Assembly: GCA_021815445.1 (NCBI GenBank)
Contig: JAKAGM010000001.1
Span: forward strand, 787,710-851,709
DNA from: a bacterium
GTDB lineage: Bacteria; Patescibacteriota; Patescibacteriia; UBA10025
Reading direction: 5' to 3'
Length of the DNA stretch: 64,000 bases
Every line of letters begins with the position of its first letter. Within the stretch, counting starts at the first letter, position 1. Position numbers and translations under genes: made by a program. The notes below the pieces were generated by a model that searched no databases, was not told where the DNA came from, and saw only the letters and a program-made list of their open reading frames with translations. Of the stretch, positions 11,639 to 54,407 are shown piece after piece.

Positions 11639-11792
11639 AATCAGCCTTACCAATAACTTTATAATATTCCCTGCCCACAGATCCCTTCAGACCAAGATGT
11701 TGGGGAAATCGAAGGACAGAAGTGAGCAAGGAATGAAATGACGAAGCGAACGTCGGCGGGGTGCCGGTGGCACGCCGCCGCTGTCCAGGACC

Positions 11793-11810
11793 CGATTCCC
11801 CCTACCCGCT
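11793..11810 (+). repeat. Direct repeat of the tRNA-Gly(UCC) 3' end (18 nt, cgattccccctacccgct)
   Basis: Exact copy of tRNA nt 11621..11638, about 170 nt downstream. A third partial copy (ccctacccgct) is at 12053..12063. Confidence 0.6.
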
Positions 11811-12233
11811 TTGTGGATCCAAATAATTCTACTGTTTCTTTAGTTGCGAGAGTACTAGCCGAAGATAGAGAATCGAAGGGGTGCGAACGGGGCAGAGCGA
11901 CTCAACTGCTTGAGTCGCGGCCGTGAGCACGGGTCGATCATGTTCTGAAGGAACGCGAGACCCAGGGAGAGTATGCATATACCACGCTGCCCAGGAAACG
12001 ATTCTTGAGTTCGATAAAATCTAACGGAACGAGACCCCGTTGAATAGCGGGACCCTACCCGCTCAGCGAATTTGCTCGCTGAGCGAGGCTCGCTACAAGC
12101 GTTAATTAATTCTACTCTCTTGAATATGTGCCCGAAAGAAATGGCATCTGTTTTGTTGGTATTTGGTTAAGTTTGAAATACATCCTTCGACTGACAATTT
12201 ATTAAATTTATCTGAATTATTTGTGAATATTAA

Positions 12234-14813: not shown

Positions 14814-15602
14814 TTAGTAATTCCTTACGGAGGAGATTGAGACGATTATCGCGAAGATAACTACCAAAACACCAAGCGCCTGTAATGCAAGAAAAACAAT
14901 TGCCCACGGCACCCATTTCTTTTGAGACTCTTTAAATTTTTCCACACTCGGCCACTGCTTTGCCTGCCACGCCCATTCGTTGCCTTTGATCCCAAGCACG
15001 ATCCACCAGAAGATGTTCACGATCGGGACCATAGTGAGCAGAGAGATCCACACATTATAGTATATTCCCCAAATCCATGTGAGCATAGATGCTCCCCAAT
15101 TCCATCCGCTGATTTCACTCGGCAACACCGACAAACTGCCTTTCCCGGATCGTTCATCATAACCTTCTGTAATGACGGGACTTTTTTGCACCAAAAAAAT
15201 TATGCCAAGTGGTACAAAAACAAAAATACCCAGGACTGCCAGTAGCCCAATTAAACCGAGAAGCCATTGAATAATATTTATCGTTGAATTTGAAATGTCG
15301 GCTTGCTGGGCTAAAAAAATAACCACTGCCCAAGCGATCAGAGTAAGGACAAGGACAGCAAATGGAAGACAAATAAATAAAATGCCCAATCTTTTGTGCT
15401 TTGATGCAACCGCATATGTAGCGCCTGTGCCCGACATCGGCTGACTGCCGCCCGGAGCAGGTCTCAGGGAAGAATAACCAGTAAGCTGAAATATCTGTCC
15501 ATCGTCCCAGCCCTGTTGTTTGAGCTGGGCGGCAATTTGTACATCAGGAAGACCGGCTGCTCGAGCCTGGGCTAGCCATTGTTGGATAGTATTTTCGGAC
15601 AT
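14814..15602 (-). CDS. Multi-TM membrane protein, paralog B, sharing its N-terminal domain with paralog A
   Basis: N-terminus MSENTIQQWLAQARAAGLPDVQIAAQLKQQGWDDGQI, followed by about 6 TM helices. Confidence 0.7.
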   Translation of the reverse strand: MSENTIQQWLAQARAAGLPDVQIAAQLKQQGWDDGQIFQLTGYSSLRPAPGGSQPMSGTGATYAVASKHKRLGILFICLPFAVLVLTLIAWAVVIFLAQQADISNSTINIIQWLLGLIGLLAVLGIFVFVPLGIIFLVQKSPVITEGYDERSGKGSLSVLPSEISGWNWGASMLTWIWGIYYNVWISLLTMVPIVNIFWWIVLGIKGNEWAWQAKQWPSVEKFKESQKKWVPWAIVFLALQALGVLVVIFAIIVSISSVRNY

Positions 15603-15626
15603 AGTTTTATTTGGTTATTATACGTT

Positions 15627-15656
15627 TAGTATAGCAAAAAAAATTGACTTTTGTCG
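15627..15656 (-). promoter_or_regulatory. Sigma70 promoter of paralog B, homologous to the paralog A promoter and leader
   Basis: Minus sense: TCGACA, an 18-nt spacer, then TATACT. The leader ...ATAATAACCAAATAAAACTATGTCC aligns with the paralog A leader. Confidence 0.5.
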
Positions 15657-15755
15657 ATGCACCCACAAACTACATTTGAAGATTTTGCTTTTTGTAAAAC
15701 AAAAAGACGAGTTATGAACTCGCTCTTGTCGGTACGTGTTACCCGTCGCTATAAA

Positions 15756-16160
15756 TTAATGACTTAGAATCAGCTTGAGCCCCAAGGATTTCAATACTTT
15801 TCTAGCCCCAGGCAGTTTCTCCTTTTTCACCATCACATAATCCTTTGAGTATGTTGATATGATAAGAATGTTCGTCCCCTTTTCTGCAAGAGCCTTACTT
15901 ATCGCTGCCAGGAAACCCACTGAATAAAAAGGGATTGAAACATTAAGCGCAATCAAAGCGTAGACGTCCCTGTTCTTCTCAATGAGACTCAAACCTTGAA
16001 AATTCTGCGTCACAACAGTAATTTCGTCTTGGTCGATGCTCAGCATAAAGAAATCATGTTTCTTGGGCACAGACTTAACCTTTGCATAAACAAAGTCCCC
16101 ATTCACTACATTGAATGTGCTCTCCTGAATAATTTTCTTAAGGTCTTTGTCCTGTTCCAT
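15756..16160 (-). CDS. ACT-domain-containing protein (ACT_7-like), hypothetical
   Basis: 134 aa from MEQDKDLKK. Beta-alpha-beta-beta-alpha-beta-like pattern. The ORF track's longer start (16220) runs into hairpin sequence. Confidence 0.45.
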   Translation of the reverse strand: MEQDKDLKKIIQESTFNVVNGDFVYAKVKSVPKKHDFFMLSIDQDEITVVTQNFQGLSLIEKNRDVYALIALNVSIPFYSVGFLAAISKALAEKGTNILIISTYSKDYVMVKKEKLPGARKVLKSLGLKLILSH

Positions 16161-16277
16161 ATTGATCGTGGTGGGCCAGGTGGGAGTCGTCCGGTCATTC
16201 GACCGGACGCCCCGTCGCATGACGGGGCGAACCCATAATACTCACACCTGTTGTGCCGAACCAATGATTTACCTTTT

Positions 16278-16361
16278 TGCCGCCGGTCGGACTCGAACCG
16301 ACAAGGCCTTGCGACCGAGGGATTTTAAGTCCCTTGTGTATACCAATTCCACCACGGCGGC
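16278..16361 (-). tRNA. tRNA-Leu(UAA), long variable arm, no encoded CCA
   Basis: Revcomp GCCGCCGTGGTGGAATTGGTATACACAAGGGACTTAAAATCCCTCGGTCGCAAGGCCTTGTCGGTTCGAGTCCGACCGGCGGCA. Anticodon loop CTTAAAA. Confidence 0.85.
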
Positions 16362-16369
16362 ATCTGTAT

Positions 16370-17461
16370 CTATAGTTTTCTCACACTACCACCCGTTCCG
16401 TCAACTTCGACGGTATCACCATCATGAAGTATCGAGGTCGCATCTTTTGTATTCACTACACAGGGTATTTTGAGCTCGCGGGCCATGATTGCAGGATGCG
16501 AGGTAAGACCTCCGAAGTCAGTAATGATAGCAGCAACTTTCCCAAAAATAGGTAAAAACTCGGGGGTGGTGATATGCGCGATAAGCACGTCGCCCTGCCG
16601 AACTTTAGGAAAGTCGTCTGAAGATTTGACAACGACGGCGCGACCATGGGCAATTCCTTGAGACGCACCAAGACCTTTCAGAATAGCATCGGGAGAACTC
16701 GTCGGCCGGGTTGATGTTTCAAGCTTCTGGGCTAAGTTATTCATCAAGCGCGAGGTGGTAAAGTCGATAAACCGGTATCCCACTCCGCCGGTGTAAAAGA
16801 TAAATTCAAAGTAGCCTTTGACGAAACCTGCATCGTTGACGGAGAAAGGCAGTTTGCGTCCTTTGGCGTCGAGGAAGCGCACGGCGGCGTAGATAATCCG
16901 TTGATCTGCATTCAGGGCGGAGGAAGCGGGAAAAGCTTTGAGATCAACTTGCTCAGCATGTAAGGCATTCTTTGGGTCAGAAGTACCTTGAGTCAGCGCT
17001 GACGGTTCACCGCGCTTCCATTCTACATACACGCTGGTATCGGTAATGAGAAAAATACCGCTATACTCGGCTCGGTGGTTTTCCCAAATACTGAGCTTGT
17101 ACATCTGAGGAGAAGGCGTGAGCGAACGGGTGAATTCAATACATTCCTGTTGCGATACGCCGTGCTTGCGGACACGGTGCAGGGTTTTAGCATGCTCATC
17201 TTTCGGCTCAGCTTTGATGGAAAAACGGTCGGACTTCGCAGCCGCAAAAAAGTCCTTGAACTTTTTTGTCTGATTCAAAATATCGTCGGCAGAGAAATGC
17301 GTGTGTTCATCGATAGGCAAACCGAGAACATCGCGCAACGTATGGAGACGTGGCCACTTGTTGAGATCCTGGTCTATAAGGTCCTGAATGTCGTCAGGCG
17401 ATACTTTTGGATTAGCGGCACGCAAGCCTTGCAGCCACTCGGTCATGGAAAATGTTTTCAT
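16370..17461 (-). CDS. PEP-utilizing enzyme mobile (phosphohistidine) domain protein with an unknown N-terminal domain
   Basis: C-terminus FGGLTSHPAIMARELKIPCVV matches the PEP-utilizers signature (GGxTSHAAIxARExGIP). The N-terminal 260 aa have no recognisable ATP-grasp or PEP-binding domain. Confidence 0.65.
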   Translation of the reverse strand: MKTFSMTEWLQGLRAANPKVSPDDIQDLIDQDLNKWPRLHTLRDVLGLPIDEHTHFSADDILNQTKKFKDFFAAAKSDRFSIKAEPKDEHAKTLHRVRKHGVSQQECIEFTRSLTPSPQMYKLSIWENHRAEYSGIFLITDTSVYVEWKRGEPSALTQGTSDPKNALHAEQVDLKAFPASSALNADQRIIYAAVRFLDAKGRKLPFSVNDAGFVKGYFEFIFYTGGVGYRFIDFTTSRLMNNLAQKLETSTRPTSSPDAILKGLGASQGIAHGRAVVVKSSDDFPKVRQGDVLIAHITTPEFLPIFGKVAAIITDFGGLTSHPAIMARELKIPCVVNTKDATSILHDGDTVEVDGTGGSVRKL

Positions 17462-17540
17462 ATGTTACTACTATACCATTTTAAACGCAACCGTATCCAC
17501 TACTGGTACGGGTATGGAAATTGTGTATTGGAGTTGGGGG

Positions 17541-17570
17541 GACGGGATTTCCCTTCGGGCCGGGGCTCAC
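17541..17570 (+). repeat. GC-rich repeat, copy a (gacgggatttcccttcgggccggggctcac), related to the tRNA-Gly(GCC) 3' end
   Basis: Same family as 18685..18713 and 19268..19296. It shares its 5' core with the reverse complement of the tRNA-Gly(GCC) 3' end. Confidence 0.6.
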
Positions 17571-17634
17571 AATCGCATATATACAGCATAAAAAAACCTC
17601 AAACTTACGTCTGGTGTGTAGTAAAAAATGTTAC

Positions 17635-18288
17635 TTAACCAATACTTCGGCGACGACTACTAGACTTCTGTTCGATTCGTCTATAAAACAATGCACCTAC
17701 AGTAAGAAATAGTCCTATGAAGGTTGCTTGAGGAATTGTTCCTAGAAATGCTCCCATAAATGCTACTAGTAAGTTGGAGCTAGATACTACAGCAAGTCCA
17801 CCAAAGGTGAGGGTTCCCAAAGTAATAACTATCACTAGGGTAACGAGTATGTAATCACGTAAGTGGTAAAGTTTTGACAGCGCCCTACAATACACTAAAG
17901 CCAGGCTTAGCCCTAAGATAGCGATAATAGCCATGAAAGGCCAGAACCAATCGGCGCCTCCTGTATTGCTTGCACTGCTCGACATATTATTATTCATACT
18001 TCCAAATCCCAGGATATATGGGACAAGCATGAAGAGAAGTAATCCTTCATATAGGAGACCCGGGGGCAAAATGAGTCGCCAGGTTGTATGAAAAAATCCA
18101 AGATGGGTGTGGTTATATTTTTGTGCAAGTTTTTCTGGGTCGCCAAGATCAAGAGCTTGAGATTTACCAACTTCTATTTCTTCAGTGTGCTGACAAATCT
18201 CGGTAATAATTTCTTTCCGCAAAGTACCGCCTACTAAAAGTGCTTGTTCAAAGCGTTCAAGAAAATCTTTACTGCTCATGGGTAGCAT
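17635..18288 (-). CDS. DUF1700-like membrane protein (PadR-associated)
   Basis: N-terminus MSSKDFLERFEQALLVGGTLRKEIITEICQHTEEIE, then 4-5 TM helices. It overlaps the padR stop by 20 nt. Confidence 0.55.
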   Translation of the reverse strand: MLPMSSKDFLERFEQALLVGGTLRKEIITEICQHTEEIEVGKSQALDLGDPEKLAQKYNHTHLGFFHTTWRLILPPGLLYEGLLLFMLVPYILGFGSMNNNMSSSASNTGGADWFWPFMAIIAILGLSLALVYCRALSKLYHLRDYILVTLVIVITLGTLTFGGLAVVSSSNLLVAFMGAFLGTIPQATFIGLFLTVGALFYRRIEQKSSSRRRSIG

Positions 18289-18601
18289 TTTGAACCAAAG
18301 TATTAATGGTTTTTTGAAAAGTGAACCAATCTTTCTTTCGCGCGATTAACCCTCTTCTACCGCGCTTTGTAACTTCATACACACGACGATTCTTATTATC
18401 GATTTCCCTCCATCTACTAGTAATTAGACCTTCATGCTCAAGCTTGTGAAGCAATGGATACAACATACCTACGCCAAACCTAAACATATCGGGCATAGTA
18501 GAGACTAGCTTTTTTGAGAGTGCGTAGCCATGCATTGGCTCCCCGGCAAGTAACGATAGAATAAGTAACTCGGAATTTCCTTTAAGTAATTCTTTGTTCA
18601 T
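18269..18601 (-). CDS. PadR-family transcriptional regulator
   Basis: GYALSKKL...MLYPLLHKLEHEGLITSRWREIDNKNRRVYEVTKRG is a winged-HTH PadR signature. Confidence 0.8.
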   Translation of the reverse strand: MNKELLKGNSELLILSLLAGEPMHGYALSKKLVSTMPDMFRFGVGMLYPLLHKLEHEGLITSRWREIDNKNRRVYEVTKRGRRGLIARKKDWFTFQKTINTLVQNATHEQ

Positions 18602-18684
18602 TTTATGAAGTATATCGTATTACGATATAATAGTACTCTAAAAAGCCACCATTGGCAATAGTGGGCTTGTGGACATCTTTTAGG

Positions 18685-18713
18685 ACGGGATTCCCCTTCG
18701 GGCCGGGGCTCAC
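18685..18713 (+). repeat. GC-rich repeat, copy b
   Basis: gacgggattccccttcgggccggggctcac, followed by the hairpin CGCCCCGC-ggta-GCGGGGC. Confidence 0.6.
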
Positions 18714-18787
18714 GCCCCGCGGTAGCGGGGCATCGTTCACCAACACAAAACAAAATTATCGGTTGCTCTACGGAGAATTTTTTTGGC

Positions 18788-19186
18788 TTACTCCCAAGGG
18801 AATTTAACTACTCGATGTATCTCCTCCAGAAAGTAATCTGGTACAACTTCCGATTTCGGCATAGTATACAAACATGCAGTTTTGACCACTGCTCCTTTAC
18901 TTTCTAGGTATTGTTTCGCTACAACCAAGCTCTTTCCAGTTTCAAGCATATCTTCTACAAGTAGGACACTTTTCCCGTCAATATTTTCCTCTATTACTGT
19001 TTTTACTTTACGTTGATCAGATACTTTTTTTACCGTCAGACAATACATTTCCTTCACATTAAGATAACTTGAAAGCAGCCGTGCGGGAATGAGACCTCCT
19101 CTAACAACCCCAACAATAATGTCGGGGGAGTACTTAATTTTACTTCGAAGTACCTTAATTTCGTTTTCAAGTTCATGCCATGTCAT
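18788..19186 (-). CDS. Type I phosphoribosyltransferase domain protein (small purine PRTase-like)
   Basis: PRPP-binding motif VLLVEDMLETGKS; 132 aa. Confidence 0.75.
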   Translation of the reverse strand: MTWHELENEIKVLRSKIKYSPDIIVGVVRGGLIPARLLSSYLNVKEMYCLTVKKVSDQRKVKTVIEENIDGKSVLLVEDMLETGKSLVVAKQYLESKGAVVKTACLYTMPKSEVVPDYFLEEIHRVVKFPWE

Positions 19187-19267
19187 GGTTTACTATATTA
19201 TTTTTTGAGGACTGGATTCCCCCTCCGGCGAGCCTCGCTTTGTCCGCTGTAAGCGGACAAAGCGGGA

Positions 19268-19296
19268 GACGGGATTCCCCTTCGGGCCGGGGCTCA
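19268..19296 (+). repeat. GC-rich repeat, copy c. It includes a 17-nt exact match (agcgggagacgggattc, 19254..19270) to the reverse complement of the tRNA-Gly(GCC) 3' end. A degenerate copy is at about 19208..19232.
   Basis: gtaagcggacaaagcgggagacgggattccccttcgggccggggctcac. Confidence 0.6.
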
Positions 19297-19475
19297 CGAT
19301 CGCCTCCGGTCTTCGACCCTGGGGTCTCAGACCCGAAGGGCGATATCGTTCGCCCTGCTCATCCCGACGCGACGCAAGCAGTTGCGTCGCTTCTCCTCCC
19401 GATTACTGGTTACTCCTTACAACGAGAATCTAGGAAACTTTTTTTACACTAATAGCTCCATCGAGCTGAGCTCGA

Positions 19476-19550
19476 TGGAGCGGGAGACGGGATTCGCACC
19501 CGCGACCTCTTCCTTGGCAAGGAAGCGTTCTACTACTGAACTACTCCCGC
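19476..19550 (-). tRNA. tRNA-Gly(GCC) with encoded CCA
   Basis: Revcomp GCGGGAGTAGTTCAGTAGTAGAACGCTTCCTTGCCAAGGAAGAGGTCGCGGGTGCGAATCCCGTCTCCCGCTCCA. Confidence 0.9.
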
Positions 19551-19559
19551 AAACGTTGT

Positions 19560-20290
19560 GTTCAATACTATCATTCAACTGACTGGCCCTGCAAATAAAC
19601 GCCCTACTACTGTCAGCCAAAGGCTGATCCGCCTCTGGCGGAAACTGGCGACGAGTTCCTTCACCCCGCGACAGCGGGGTTCAGGATGCTCGATTTTCTA
19701 GCTGCTCGCAAAGCTCGCAGAGAAAATCGGCATTTCAGTCCGGAGACCTGCCCCGCAAAAGCTCACGCAATGAGCGATGCGGGGTCTTCCGGGGTGCTTC
19801 CGATGGGTCGCACCCGTCCCGCAAGGCGGGACCCACTTCGCTACCTCGGTAACGGGTAATCTCTCTCTCATGCCGAGGGCCAGAACCCCGCTAGTCAGCG
19901 GGGCAGGTCTCCCAGGCGACGCAAGGAAAGGAGATCCCTCGTTTTACTCGGGACGCTCAATTTTTCATCTGCTTGTTCCACTCGCAGGAAAAATTGGCGT
20001 TTTCAGTCCGGAGTTTATCCCGCACATGTGCCTGGGGCCAGAATTGAACTGGCGACGCAAGGATTTTCAGTCCTTCGCTCTACCACTGAGCTACCCAGGC
20101 ATTAACCCAGACACATATGCGGGACTCTACCACTGAGCTACCTCGGCGGAAACCAAACCTCGGCAAAAGGGGAGGATATATTTTTAAAGTTCTTCGCGGC
20201 ATTTACCCCGCACCTGGAACGCAGTGACATGGTGCGGGGCCACTGAGCTACCTCGGCGGAGAATGACTTCGGCATGAGAGAGTACTACAG
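19560..20290 (-). repeat. Mosaic of tRNA-derived fragments and short repeats surrounding an intact tRNA-Phe
   Basis: tRNA 5' halves GCCGAGGTAGCTCAGTGG occur in minus sense at 20130..20147 and 20240..20257. A Phe-like 3' half ending CCTCGGCA is at about 19872. A 32-nt repeat CTCCGGACTGAAA..CTGCGAG occurs twice (19724..19755 and 19981..20013). 16-bp inverted repeats lie at 19863..19878 and 20267..20282. Confidence 0.5.
20029..20100 (-). tRNA. tRNA-Phe(GAA), no encoded CCA
   Basis: Revcomp GCCTGGGTAGCTCAGTGGTAGAGCGAAGGACTGAAAATCCTTGCGTCGCCAGTTCAATTCTGGCCCCAGGCA. Confidence 0.85.
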
Positions 20291-20298
20291 ATCCAACT

Positions 20299-20375
20299 TG
20301 GTGGGCGACTCAGGAATCGAACCTGAGACCTCGTCATTATCAGTGACGCGCTCTAACCATCTGAGCTAGTCGCCC
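20299..20375 (-). tRNA. tRNA-Ile(GAU) with CCA, in the 16S-downstream spacer
   Basis: Revcomp GGGCGACTAGCTCAGATGGTTAGAGCGCGTCACTGATAATGACGAGGTCTCAGGTTCGATTCCTGAGTCGCCCACCA. Confidence 0.9.
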
Positions 20376-20666
20376 ATGTAAGAGGATTCAATTGTTAAAG
20401 GCAGGAAAACAAAAAAACTACAGATAGTAGTGTACGGCTTCGATGCATCTACGGCAAGTGGATAGCATGATATCTGTAGGGTAGTCTCATGAAACAACTT
20501 TGACGTGGTAAGAATATTCCTCAATCGAGCCATTCTTAATGTTTCGATATGTAGTTTCACTACACCATAGTGGGGCATCTCTCTTTACGTAATAAAGGGA
20601 TGTGTCCCACGCGACCCTCGTAACGGATACGCGTTATGCGTTTTCCGTCTCTAGGTAATCTCCCTA

Positions 20667-22162
<1,496 letters not shown>

Positions 22163-24084: not shown

Positions 24085-24160
24085 CTTTCTTTTCTCTCCA
24101 CTTTTCTTTGGACAAGCAAAGAAAAATGGAGCCCACCCCGCCGTAGGGGGGGGTGGTTTT
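24085..24160 (+). repeat. Structured repeat element, copy 1: a 14-bp perfect hairpin plus a GC hairpin with a T-run (terminator-like)
   Basis: ctctccacttttctttggacaagcaaagaaaaatggag, then CCACCCCGCCGTAGGGGGGGTGG, then TTTT. A near-identical core occurs at 49215..49260. Confidence 0.55.
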
Positions 24161-49214: not shown

Positions 49215-49275
49215 TGACTTTTCTCTCCACTTTTCTTTGGACGAGCAAAGAAAAGTGGAGCCCCTCCGGAGGGCA
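49215..49275 (+). repeat. Structured repeat element, copy 2 (14-bp perfect hairpin ctccacttttcttt/aaagaaaagtggag plus GC hairpin)
   Basis: cttttctctccacttttctttggacgagcaaagaaaagtggagcccctccggagggc. Confidence 0.55.
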
Positions 49276-53601: not shown

Positions 53602-53860
53602 GATAGAATTCACCAAGGTACGCTAAAAGTGCAGGAATCCCACCGAGAGCACCAAGGGCAACTAATCCCGTTCCGCTATACGGAACGAGGATCTACGATC
53701 ACCGAAGGCGATTGGGACTCAGGTGGGTTCGAGCGGTATCCGCCTTTGCGGATAACGAGCAAACTGCTTTGCTTGCGACCGCGAGAACGGGCGGGCGATG
53801 TGAGCGCGAGCGAACCTGCTCGCCCAGGATAGAGCGTCTCGTTTACACCATAATCGATGA

Positions 53861-53955: not shown

Positions 53956-54210
53956 ATGAGATATTTTCTCGGCATCATATTTATCGGCATCGGTTTCCTC
54001 ATTGTATGGAAATCCGACTGGTTCATGGAGAATTTCGGAAGGATAGAATTCGCAGAAAAATACCTCGGCTCAGGCTGGGGCGGTACGCGTGTTTTTTACA
54101 AACTCTTAGGCATCCTGATCATCATTATTGCCTTTATGTACATGAGCGGCTTGCTTCAGTCCATCCTTGGCAGTATTTTCAGCCCTACCCGCAAGGTACT
54201 TTCACAGTAA
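53956..54210 (+). CDS. Small two-TM membrane protein (hypothetical)
   Basis: 84 aa, hydrophobic. Sits between tRNA genes. Confidence 0.35.
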   Translation: MRYFLGIIFIGIGFLIVWKSDWFMENFGRIEFAEKYLGSGWGGTRVFYKLLGILIIIIAFMYMSGLLQSILGSIFSPTRKVLSQ

Positions 54211-54407
54211 AACCAAGGGCCCTTAGCTTCCGCCAGCGGCGGACCCGCCTTTGACGGGCATTTGGGTCGAGTCAACAAGCGAACAGAACTGCTTCTGTTC
54301 GCGCGGGACGAGACGGGCTAAGCGATGTCTGGCGCAGCCAGACAGCGAAGCCCCGAAAGAGCGCCGCGTTTGTACCTTTGAATACGAATAGAATTGAATC
54401 CCTTTAT

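Follow-up and report, generated by a model that had tools for sequence, protein, structure and literature searches.

Integron cassettes are small units of one or two genes that lie in one orientation, each carrying a structured attC site, in a system that comprises the integrase IntI and an attI site. pdif modules are likewise small gene units; they are delimited by ~28-bp sites, and a host recombinase moves them. tRNA-like processing signals are represented by mitochondrial tRNA punctuation, plant t-elements, and mascRNA-type tRNA mimics; we know of no system of this kind in bacteria. In Dehalococcoides, tandem islands at ssrA have 20-bp repeats of the 3' end at their boundaries, each preceded immediately by a further conserved motif, and some of these islands, which carry no integrase, have been proposed to be cis-mobilizable (PMC3146451). 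Here, we analyzed a 64-kb stretch of a small Patescibacteria-type genome (the window, to which all coordinates refer unless a locus is named), in which a short repeat recurs among protein genes downstream of tRNA-Gly(GCC). An earlier note on this DNA had suggested that these genes might be mobile cassettes, separated by repeats derived from the tRNA 3' end. Our results lend partial support to the idea of mobile cassettes, and they reassign the repeat: it is the core of an element, here called E, that is widespread behind tRNA genes and for which neither Rfam 15 nor the literature searched offered a match.

A structured element that trails tRNA genes

The 30-mer GACGGGATTCCCCTTCGGGCCGGGGCTCAC (+ strand) occurs at 17541-17570 (one mismatch), 18684-18713, and 19268-19297, always in one orientation and within 2.1 kb; these are copies a, b, and c. 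Their start-to-start distances are 1143 and 584 nt. The 30-mer was not found in any of 100 shuffles, and no further copy lies in the 64 kb. Together with a degenerate fourth copy, d, these counts bear out what had been noted before. The same holds for the exact 17-nt copy of the tRNA-Gly(GCC) 3' end into which copy c runs on: it lies at 19261-19277 and matches the T-loop-to-discriminator 17-mer of the tRNA at 19479-19495. Copies a and c are identical at 37 of 40 nt, and b and c at 31 of 31 nt; b additionally carries a diverged GGTGAACGAT-hairpin of different stem sequence. Compared with the tRNA itself, copies a and b have only ~10-14 nt in common, versus 31-37 nt with c. The proposed derivation of the repeat from the tRNA thus stands for its last 10-17 nt, which are tRNA sequence, whereas the remainder is the conserved core of a separate element that follows tRNA genes.

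E is a structured element of ~75-150 nt that trails tRNA genes in Patescibacteria, and the 30-mer corresponds to its conserved 3' half. E has been found 3' of tRNAs for Gly, Ser, Pro, Gln, Arg, and Asn, and its final 17-18 nt duplicate the 3' end of its own tRNA exactly. When GTDB genomes were scanned with the 3' half of tRNA-Gly(GCC), 45 Patescibacteria loci were returned. In loci L029, L037, L045, L049, L050, and L056, tRNA-Gly(GCC) is followed by a GC-rich insert of 130-220 nt that closes by repeating the tRNA 3' end, in most cases together with CCA; the terminator of the tRNA has been copied too in L050 and L056. A scan of JGI metagenomes with the core 20-mer CCCMGGCCCGAAGGGGAATC gave 45 loci, seven of which were chance matches in GC-rich sequence. 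In at least 24 of the remaining 38, a tRNA called on the same strand, of isotype Ser, Pro, Gln, Arg, or Asn, precedes the motif by 90-250 nt, and the 3' end of that particular tRNA reappears after the motif, exactly and over 17-18 nt. E always has the orientation of the tRNA. A few loci have E after protein genes (L075, L070, L079), and in other loci totalling ~600 kb the motif is associated with tRNA genes.

The consensus reads NNNN-GGGAU-(UC/GA)-GAAGGG-[variable hairpin]-CCC(C/A)GG-CCCGAAGGG-GAAUCCC-NN..., usually with a hairpin of loop CAACUGCUUG ahead of it. Helices P1, P2, and P3 meet in a three-way junction that forms the core of E, and after this core come the T-stem and acceptor 3' strand copied from the upstream tRNA. 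P1 is T-stem-like; it draws on the GAAUCCC of the copied tRNA T-loop/T-stem and fits each host tRNA through one or two substitutions. P2 is the variable hairpin, closed by GGG/CCC, and P3 is an invariant CCC-GAA-GGG mini-hairpin. For P1 and P2 together, 89.4% of the alignment cells were paired, compared with 79.6% in shuffles, and double-sided changes numbered 56 versus 22; none of 500 shuffles was as good. Slid controls for the proposed three-way junction pairing reached at most 64%. P3 carries no evidential weight, since it is invariant and fixed by the search pattern. G-U and A-C pairs in E (12 versus 7) are not decisive between an RNA and a DNA structure. Family-wide complementarity to the acceptor 3' strand came to 5.67 of 7 positions, against 5.47 in mismatched controls. 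E as a complete tRNA mimic with an acceptor stem was rejected; the complement is found only in a subset of members, including the window (CGGGAG/CUCCCG).

A covariance model (CM), R1, was built from metagenome members only, with the window sequences excluded. The invariant core feature of R1, GAAGGG...CCCNGGCCCGAAGGGGAAUCCC, is present in copy c, which also lies directly 3' of its tRNA on the same strand and ends in the exact 3'-end copy, as the family does. Copies b and a gave partial matches (scores in Table 1), confined to the 3' part of the model. Both lack the 5' strand of P1, and a lacks P2 as well; the family fold is therefore not possible for them. They follow protein genes and are devoid of the acceptor part, and so depart from the family in position and ending. 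Searches of the window and canonical members against Rfam 15 (gathering score, and E-values up to 1-5) returned no family for E, only tRNA or tRNA-overlapping chance matches, and a literature search found no description of an E-like element. Exact scans with 24-28-mers gave no match in GTDB genomes, JGI metagenomes, or IMG/VR, sets that do not include the window species. Hammerhead, k-turn, archaeal bulge-helix-bulge intron, IS200/IS605 or IS91 ends, transfer-messenger RNA (tmRNA), and signal recognition particle RNA were considered and rejected, with no core motif matched.

Copy c belongs to the resident, vertically inherited, full-length E of tRNA-Gly(GCC), designated E1, which has orthologues in three relatives. 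E1 (~145 nt) is GC-rich and folds far better than its shuffles. Within it, the 30-mer comprises the 3' strand of P2, CGG, P3, and GAAUCCCGUC. In the related locus L002, blocks of 19/20, 35/38, and 47/49 nt are conserved with variable hairpins between them, a level above the 80% amino-acid identity of the adjoining protein with a phosphoenolpyruvate (PEP)-utilizer domain. The E1 orthologue of L049 is 95% identical over 60 nt. The 30-mer orthologues differ from the window copy at 2/30 (L002) and 6/30 (L049) positions. A mini-hairpin inside P2, CTTCGGGTCTGAGACCCCAGGGTCGAAGACC (31-34 nt), is specific to the window copy of E1. Similar sequences lie in other spacers, at 7194-7227 of L049 and 6489-6521 of L037, in either orientation, and these occurrences give it the look of a small hairpin able to move from spacer to spacer.

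E-like sequence is also present at other tRNA genes of the window. Downstream of tRNA-Gly(TCC) lie two E-like modules (11640-12100, +). The first closes with a 17-nt copy of the tRNA's own 3' end (11793-11810). The second has a hairpin, AGCGACTCAACTGCTTGAGTCGCG, that is compensatory relative to E1, and ends with CCCTACCCGCT (12053-12063); a hairpin and the motif AGCGAGGCTCGC (12082-12093) come next, as they do after copy c, where the motif is part of copy d. An orthologous tRNA-Gly(TCC) module is held by L049. Upstream of tRNA-Val(TAC) and tRNA-Ala(TGC), at 53603-53860 and 54205-54376 (+), GC-rich stretches contain copies of the downstream tRNA from D-arm to anticodon loop. These are fused to E-core-like sequence, with an H1-like hairpin GCAAACTGCTTTGC and a CM R1 match at 54301-54370 (16.7 bits); the module is thus also joined to internal tRNA segments and on the 5' side of a tRNA. 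At 19560-20300 (-), and at 30-760 of L049, an intact tRNA-Phe is flanked on both sides by pieces of a second gene resembling tRNA-Phe, namely 5' fragments GCCGAGGTAGCTCAGTGG(TAGAG) at ~20126-20150 and ~20236-20260 and, downstream, an anticodon arm, a T-arm, and a CCCTCGGCA 3' end, interrupted by CCCCGC...GCGGGG hairpins. Because the variant acceptor (GCCGAGG/CCTCGGC) and the 3' end also occur in L049, these fragments are conserved rather than fresh debris.

Foreign gene units in the tRNA-Gly–tRNA-Leu spacer

The DNA between copies d and a is a low-GC foreign insertion in this lineage, within an otherwise gene-free tRNA-Gly(GCC)-E-tRNA-Leu spacer. It consists, in order, of a phosphoribosyltransferase (PRTase) gene, copy b, a PadR regulator gene, and a gene for a membrane protein of 217 aa. 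In L002, whose PEP-utilizer protein is 80% identical, tRNA-Gly, E1, the hairpin hp2, and a d-like piece are followed directly by the PEP-utilizer gene. In L049 and L037, which have ~60% protein identity and neighbors in common with the window, tRNA-Gly(GCC), E, and tRNA-Leu(TAA) lie within 250-300 nt with no protein gene. Variable presence of the two units, which the earlier note had put forward as a check, was found: both the PRTase unit and the unit of PadR and the membrane protein are absent from all three relatives, and by parsimony the genes were gained in the window lineage. A collapsed assembly of L002 is unlikely, because its contig crosses ~70 nt of non-repeated sequence between copy c and the PEP-utilizer promoter.

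The composition of the genes differs from that of the window. The GC content at third codon positions (GC3) is 0.316 for PRTase (z = -3.9), 0.387 for PadR, and 0.330 for the membrane protein (z from -2.7 to -3.9; window mean 0.558, standard deviation 0.062), which places all three among the four lowest of 48 window genes, while the PEP-utilizer gene is typical (0.508). Their absence in relatives and their low GC3 together indicate that the units are recent foreign insertions.

The nearest PRTase homologues (~70% identity) are found in many lineages of the candidate phyla radiation (CPR) and of DPANN, in unrelated contexts. In six other lineages, the PRTase gene adjoins neither a tRNA nor an E, and PRTase plus E is accordingly not a travelling unit in those genomes; the closest homologue lies on a visibly AT-rich contig with no E. 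Distant PEP-utilizer homologues (P0005, P0006), taken as an outgroup, showed no conserved synteny. Other cargo occurs in the tRNA-Gly-tRNA-Leu spacer of relatives: L029 holds a GIY-YIG gene (690-932) with VIT1, and L002 an HNH gene (1547-2020) between the PEP-utilizer gene and tRNA-Leu. GIY-YIG genes also adjoin PRTase homologues (small HNH/GIY-YIG genes at 4718-4984 of L008 and 2814-3068 of L111), and one protein, P0132, is a PRTase-GIY-YIG fusion. Hitch-hiking with homing endonucleases is a possible route of gene movement here.

The locus and its genes are listed in Table 1. Along the minus strand, the locus reads trmD, 16S rRNA, tRNA-Ile, tRNA-Phe, tRNA-Gly(GCC), PRTase, PadR, the 217-aa membrane protein, the PEP-utilizer-domain protein, and tRNA-Leu(TAA), with every gene from 16S through tRNA-Leu on one strand. 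The same window proteins are found on an 877-kb ENA contig, and the protein neighborhood recurs on 7-8 independent long contigs in all. Pfam and tRNA calls agree with the gene content given in the earlier note, save for the label "DUF1700-like" of the membrane protein: its match to HAAS is below threshold (E-value 0.11), and no homologue was found among 5.8 billion proteins, which makes it an orphan. Boxes resembling a -10 element (TATAGT, TATACT, and TGGTATAGT; consensus matches only) lie 5-8 nt before the ATG of each unit, at 19184-19197, 18599-18614, and 17459-17478. Shine-Dalgarno spacing is absent in all three units, which suggests that they may be expressed as leaderless mRNAs.

Table 1. 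Features of the tRNA-Gly(GCC) locus in window coordinates
Feature	Position	Strand	Basis
tRNA-Gly(GCC), with encoded CCA	19476..19550	-	ARAGORN; Rfam tRNA 69.9 bits
Hairpin directly 3' of tRNA-Gly(GCC), CCATCGAGCTCAGCTCGATGG	19458..19478	-	Sequence; terminator hairpins at the equivalent place in relatives
Full-length element E1: acceptor-complement CGGGAG (in 19385-19404); hairpin H1, loop CAACUGCUUG (19369-19390); T-stem-like P1 5' strand (19361-19368); P2 (19290-19355); mini-hairpin CCCGAAGGG; P1 3' strand; 17-nt tRNA 3'-end copy; includes copy c	19261..19404	-	CM R1 50.9 bits, E = 4.7e-12 at 19266-19369; orthologues in relatives; fold z = -5.5
GC-rich mini-hairpin inside P2 of E1	19308..19338	-	Alignment; in the window only, missing from E1 of L002 and L049
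Hairpin hp2, directly 3' of the tRNA-end copy	19240..19260	-	Hairpin kept in L002 with an entirely different stem sequence
Degenerate copy d, AGCGAGGCTCGCCGGAGGGGGAATCCAGTCCTC; left junction of the inserted DNA	19207..19239	-	Counterpart in L002
Unit 1: -10-like TATAGT 5 nt before ATG; gene for PRTase of 132 aa (18788-19186)	18788..19197	-	Pfam PF00156, E = 9.5e-20
Copy b, 5'-truncated E: GGTGAACGAT, own CCCCGC/GCGGGG hairpin, 31 nt identical to c, then GTCCT	18682..18741	-	CM R1 24.5 bits, E = 1.2e-4
Terminator-like hairpin and T-run just 3' of copy b	18646..18664	-	Overlaps -35-like box of the PadR unit
Unit 2: -10-like TATACT 7 nt before ATG; PadR (18269-18601), overlapping the 217-aa membrane-protein gene (17635-18288)	17635..18614	-	Pfam PadR, E = 1.1e-20
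Copy a, 40-nt 5'-truncated E piece; right junction of the inserted DNA	17537..17576	-	CM R1 21.2 bits, E = 1.1e-3
Older resident genes: extended -10 TGGTATAGT, PEP-utilizer-domain gene (16370-17461), tRNA-Leu(TAA) (16277-16362)	16277..17478	-	Pfam, tRNA calls, sequence

The surroundings of the locus show further peculiarities. The 16S gene (region 20299-22162) is followed by tRNA-Ile, tRNA-Phe, and tRNA-Gly instead of tRNA-Ala and 23S; the 23S gene is absent from the window, and the rRNA genes are therefore unlinked. At 14814-16220, the window has an ACT-domain gene and a gene of 262 aa between tRNA-Leu and a conserved 163-aa gene, and L049 (1177-1902) has neither. The whole tRNA cluster is a hot spot of gene gain. 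A direct repeat of 46 nt (CTTTTCTCTCCACTTTTCTTTGGAC.AGCAAAGAAAA.TGGAGCCC), 96% identical and containing an inverted repeat, lies at 24089-24134 and 49218-49263, 25 kb apart.

Routes by which the units may have entered

Tentatively, we favor a tandem, att-like recombination at the 3' motif of E by a recombinase encoded elsewhere. Both foreign units start at the same motif position, GGGGAATCCNGTCCT^AAAA: the left junction at d runs from GGGGAATCCAGTCCTC (also GGGGGAATCCAGTCCTC) into AAAAAA, and that at b from GGGGAATCCCGTCCT into AAAAG. The boundaries of the low-GC DNA coincide with E pieces, the left arms of b and a are like that of c, and the right flank of a continues into the homologue of the L002 flank. 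Under this reading, the two units would have entered one after the other through recombination at the E 3' motif, with a crossover near GGGGAAUCCNGUC^CU. Each event would regenerate the site, in the manner of attL/attR in tandem integrative elements at a tRNA or tmRNA gene, and the copies would read d = B-core-P', b = P-core-P', and a = P-core-B'. Such regeneration would explain why two units come with two extra copies in the same orientation. The recombinase may be encoded in the genome or on a helper element, and the units would be non-autonomous, cis-mobilizable-like cargo with promoters of their own.

A number of observations weigh against this mechanism. At 0.58 and 1.14 kb, the units are tiny, and they contain no integration genes. 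As had been noted before, the window lacks an integrase: among the open reading frames (ORFs) of at least 170 aa in the 64 kb, none showed an integrase, recombinase, or transposase domain, and the genes called on L001 and L003 include no Phage_integrase or other recombinase domain. The boundaries of the repeats are ragged on both sides, since b stops at GTC and a at GTCCCCC and the left ends differ too, and the right flanks of d and b are similar over only ~6 nt. In b, the hairpin has the CCCCGC/GCGGGG form that is frequent in the tRNA spacers of this very genome, which suggests that b is native and not imported. The three foreign genes have similar GC3 and could have come as one block. Gene-free tandem pairs of E, 100-270 nt apart, occur in L106, L094, L082, L078, L099, L095, L104, and L081, and the repeats could therefore predate the genes. 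Viral contigs contained no true E, the single match to a general 20-mer being a chance repeat inside a GC-rich ORF, and no E was present on the contigs with the nearest PRTase homologues.

The tandem pairs bring up an account in which the array came first, which we hold to be somewhat unlikely. Full and degenerate E modules would have arisen in tandem after tRNA-Gly(GCC) by unequal recombination between the 17-18 nt repeats, and the genes would have been inserted later, by illegitimate or homology-facilitated recombination or by hitch-hiking with free-standing homing endonuclease genes, erasing the 5' parts of two modules. Besides the eight gene-free pairs in metagenome loci and the native-type hairpin in b, it agrees with the two modules and the same terminal AGCGAGGCTCGC piece at tRNA-Gly(TCC), with the presence of copy d without any gene in L002, with the other insertions that the spacer holds elsewhere (GIY-YIG and VIT1 in L029, HNH in L002), and with the GIY-YIG genes that adjoin PRTase homologues. 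However, it would require two independent insertions to have hit the identical motif nucleotide in the same orientation, and equivalents of b and a were not seen in L002 or L049. Furthermore, b equals c over 31 nt, yet the orthologues in these two relatives have diverged, as given above. A function at the RNA level appears rather improbable. Here, the genes would have come as one 1.7-kb block or as two, and truncated E pieces would later have been duplicated or seeded 3' of each gene to act in 3'-end processing, stability, or punctuation, as signals for tRNA-maturation or double-strand-specific nucleases in a long 16S-to-tRNA-Leu transcript. The motif follows none of the ~45 other window genes, b and a lack the P1 strand that the family fold requires, and no mechanism is known for seeding pieces of 40-60 nt. 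The shared strand from 16S to tRNA-Leu favors such a function all the same, as do the position of each piece 46-58 nt past a stop codon, the strong and covarying structure of E, its tRNA-like end with CCA, the terminator copies in L050 and L056, the few members after protein genes, and the similar GC3 of the three genes. G-U pairs in L002 and L049 agree with the tRNA-sense strand, whereas the family-wide pair counts leave the strand undecided.

The two remaining explanations start from alternatives raised in the earlier note. A classical integron array, with attC-like sites, an IntI integrase, and a common promoter, would account for small gene units in one orientation that are each followed by a structured, GC-rich site, and the E core (~75 nt, with conserved ends and a variable central hairpin) is of attC size. 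This idea is scarcely credible, given that there are only two units, that neither IntI nor another tyrosine recombinase was detected in the ORFs and loci searched, that b and a are truncated, lack the complementary strand, and are not foldable in an attC-like manner, and that each unit has its own -10-like box beside the ATG. It is also very improbable that the repeat is a dispersed palindrome that happens to resemble a tRNA, of the repetitive extragenic palindromic (REP) or bacterial interspersed mosaic element (BIME) type, or a product of chance or assembly. The sequence is GC-rich, hairpin-forming, and intergenic, as REP sequences are, but nothing is dispersed: all copies lie within 2.1 kb of the 64 kb, the window has no transposase domain, and the motif is tied to tRNA genes in other genomes. 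The expected number of chance copies is zero, and the recurrence of the protein neighborhood on independent long contigs speaks against an assembly artefact.

The att-like recombination that we favor retains, in modified form, two further proposals of the earlier note. The view that the repeats partition the region into cassettes holds in that same-orientation repeats bound the gene blocks; copy c, however, bounds none, being inherited and present in cassette-free relatives, and the insertion point follows d. Likewise, the comparison with tandem tRNA-site elements that have lost their integrases is backed by blocks that are variably present, compositionally foreign, and bounded by same-orientation repeats, although the repeat is not a simple copy of the tRNA 3' end. 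A bolder proposal, which we regard as doubtful, is that E is a new tRNA-mimicking structured element, either RNA or folded single-stranded DNA, that copies the end of its host tRNA, spreads between tRNA genes, and serves as a dedicated capture site for promoter-bearing units. It would form an integron-like platform in reduced CPR genomes, with a recombinase perhaps guided by P1 pairing.

Significance and comparison with known systems

CPR/Patescibacteria genomes are tiny, and their routes of gene gain are little understood. The conserved spacer between tRNA-Gly(GCC) and tRNA-Leu has acquired different genes in different lineages, and in one of them copies of a structured motif flank the new genes. 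New genes seem to use E as a landing site. Should the motif serve as a recombination site, it would amount to a compact system for capturing genes; should it act as an RNA, it would represent a new class of tRNA-linked non-coding RNA. Either way, model R1 and the junction GGGGAATCCNGTCCT^AAAA are testable sequences.

Integron cassettes resemble the units described here in their small size and single orientation, and in that each unit is followed by a site of conserved shape and variable sequence. They differ in that no IntI or attI was seen at this locus, the sites are truncated, and the units have putative promoters of their own. With REP/BIME sequences and pdif modules, the repeats share the character of short, GC-rich, structured intergenic sequences. 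Unlike REP/BIME sequences, they are not dispersed, and no gene for a REP-associated tyrosine transposase (RAYT) was seen; unlike pdif sites, they are direct rather than alternating and have no dif-like dyad symmetry. In common with tRNA-like processing signals, E places a tRNA-like T-stem and acceptor 3' end downstream of genes and could recruit tRNA-processing enzymes. Acceptor-like pairing is, in contrast, limited to a subset of E, and b and a lack even P1.

The closest parallel is offered by tandem tRNA/tmRNA islands and the accretion of cis-mobilizable elements (CIMEs) (PMC3146451; PMC5704250). In both cases, same-orientation repeats that contain at least some sequence of the target's 3' end bound low-GC, strain-variable blocks downstream, each repeat is immediately preceded by a conserved motif that is not tRNA, some units are devoid of an integrase, and the T-loop is the inferred crossover region. 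The units at this locus measure 0.6-1.1 kb, whereas islands span many kb. Here, moreover, no integration module was seen, and no cognate integrase in the window; the exact tRNA 17-mer is confined to copy c, the repeat being mostly the core of a separate structured element rather than tRNA; and the insertion point is the degenerate secondary copy d, not the tRNA itself.

E also recalls the attR-type partial tRNA genes left by integrating elements (PMC9897764, citing Williams 2002), in that an exact 17-18 nt copy from T-loop to discriminator lies 3' of an intact tRNA on the same strand. The DNA between the tRNA and this copy is different in kind: it amounts to only ~100-220 nt and is non-coding and structured, with covarying stems. 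tRNA fragments are not always island scars, a caution for annotation. E is homologous across six tRNA isotypes and many genomes, is often found in tandem, and is more conserved between relatives than the neighboring proteins; it is therefore not a decaying island remnant.

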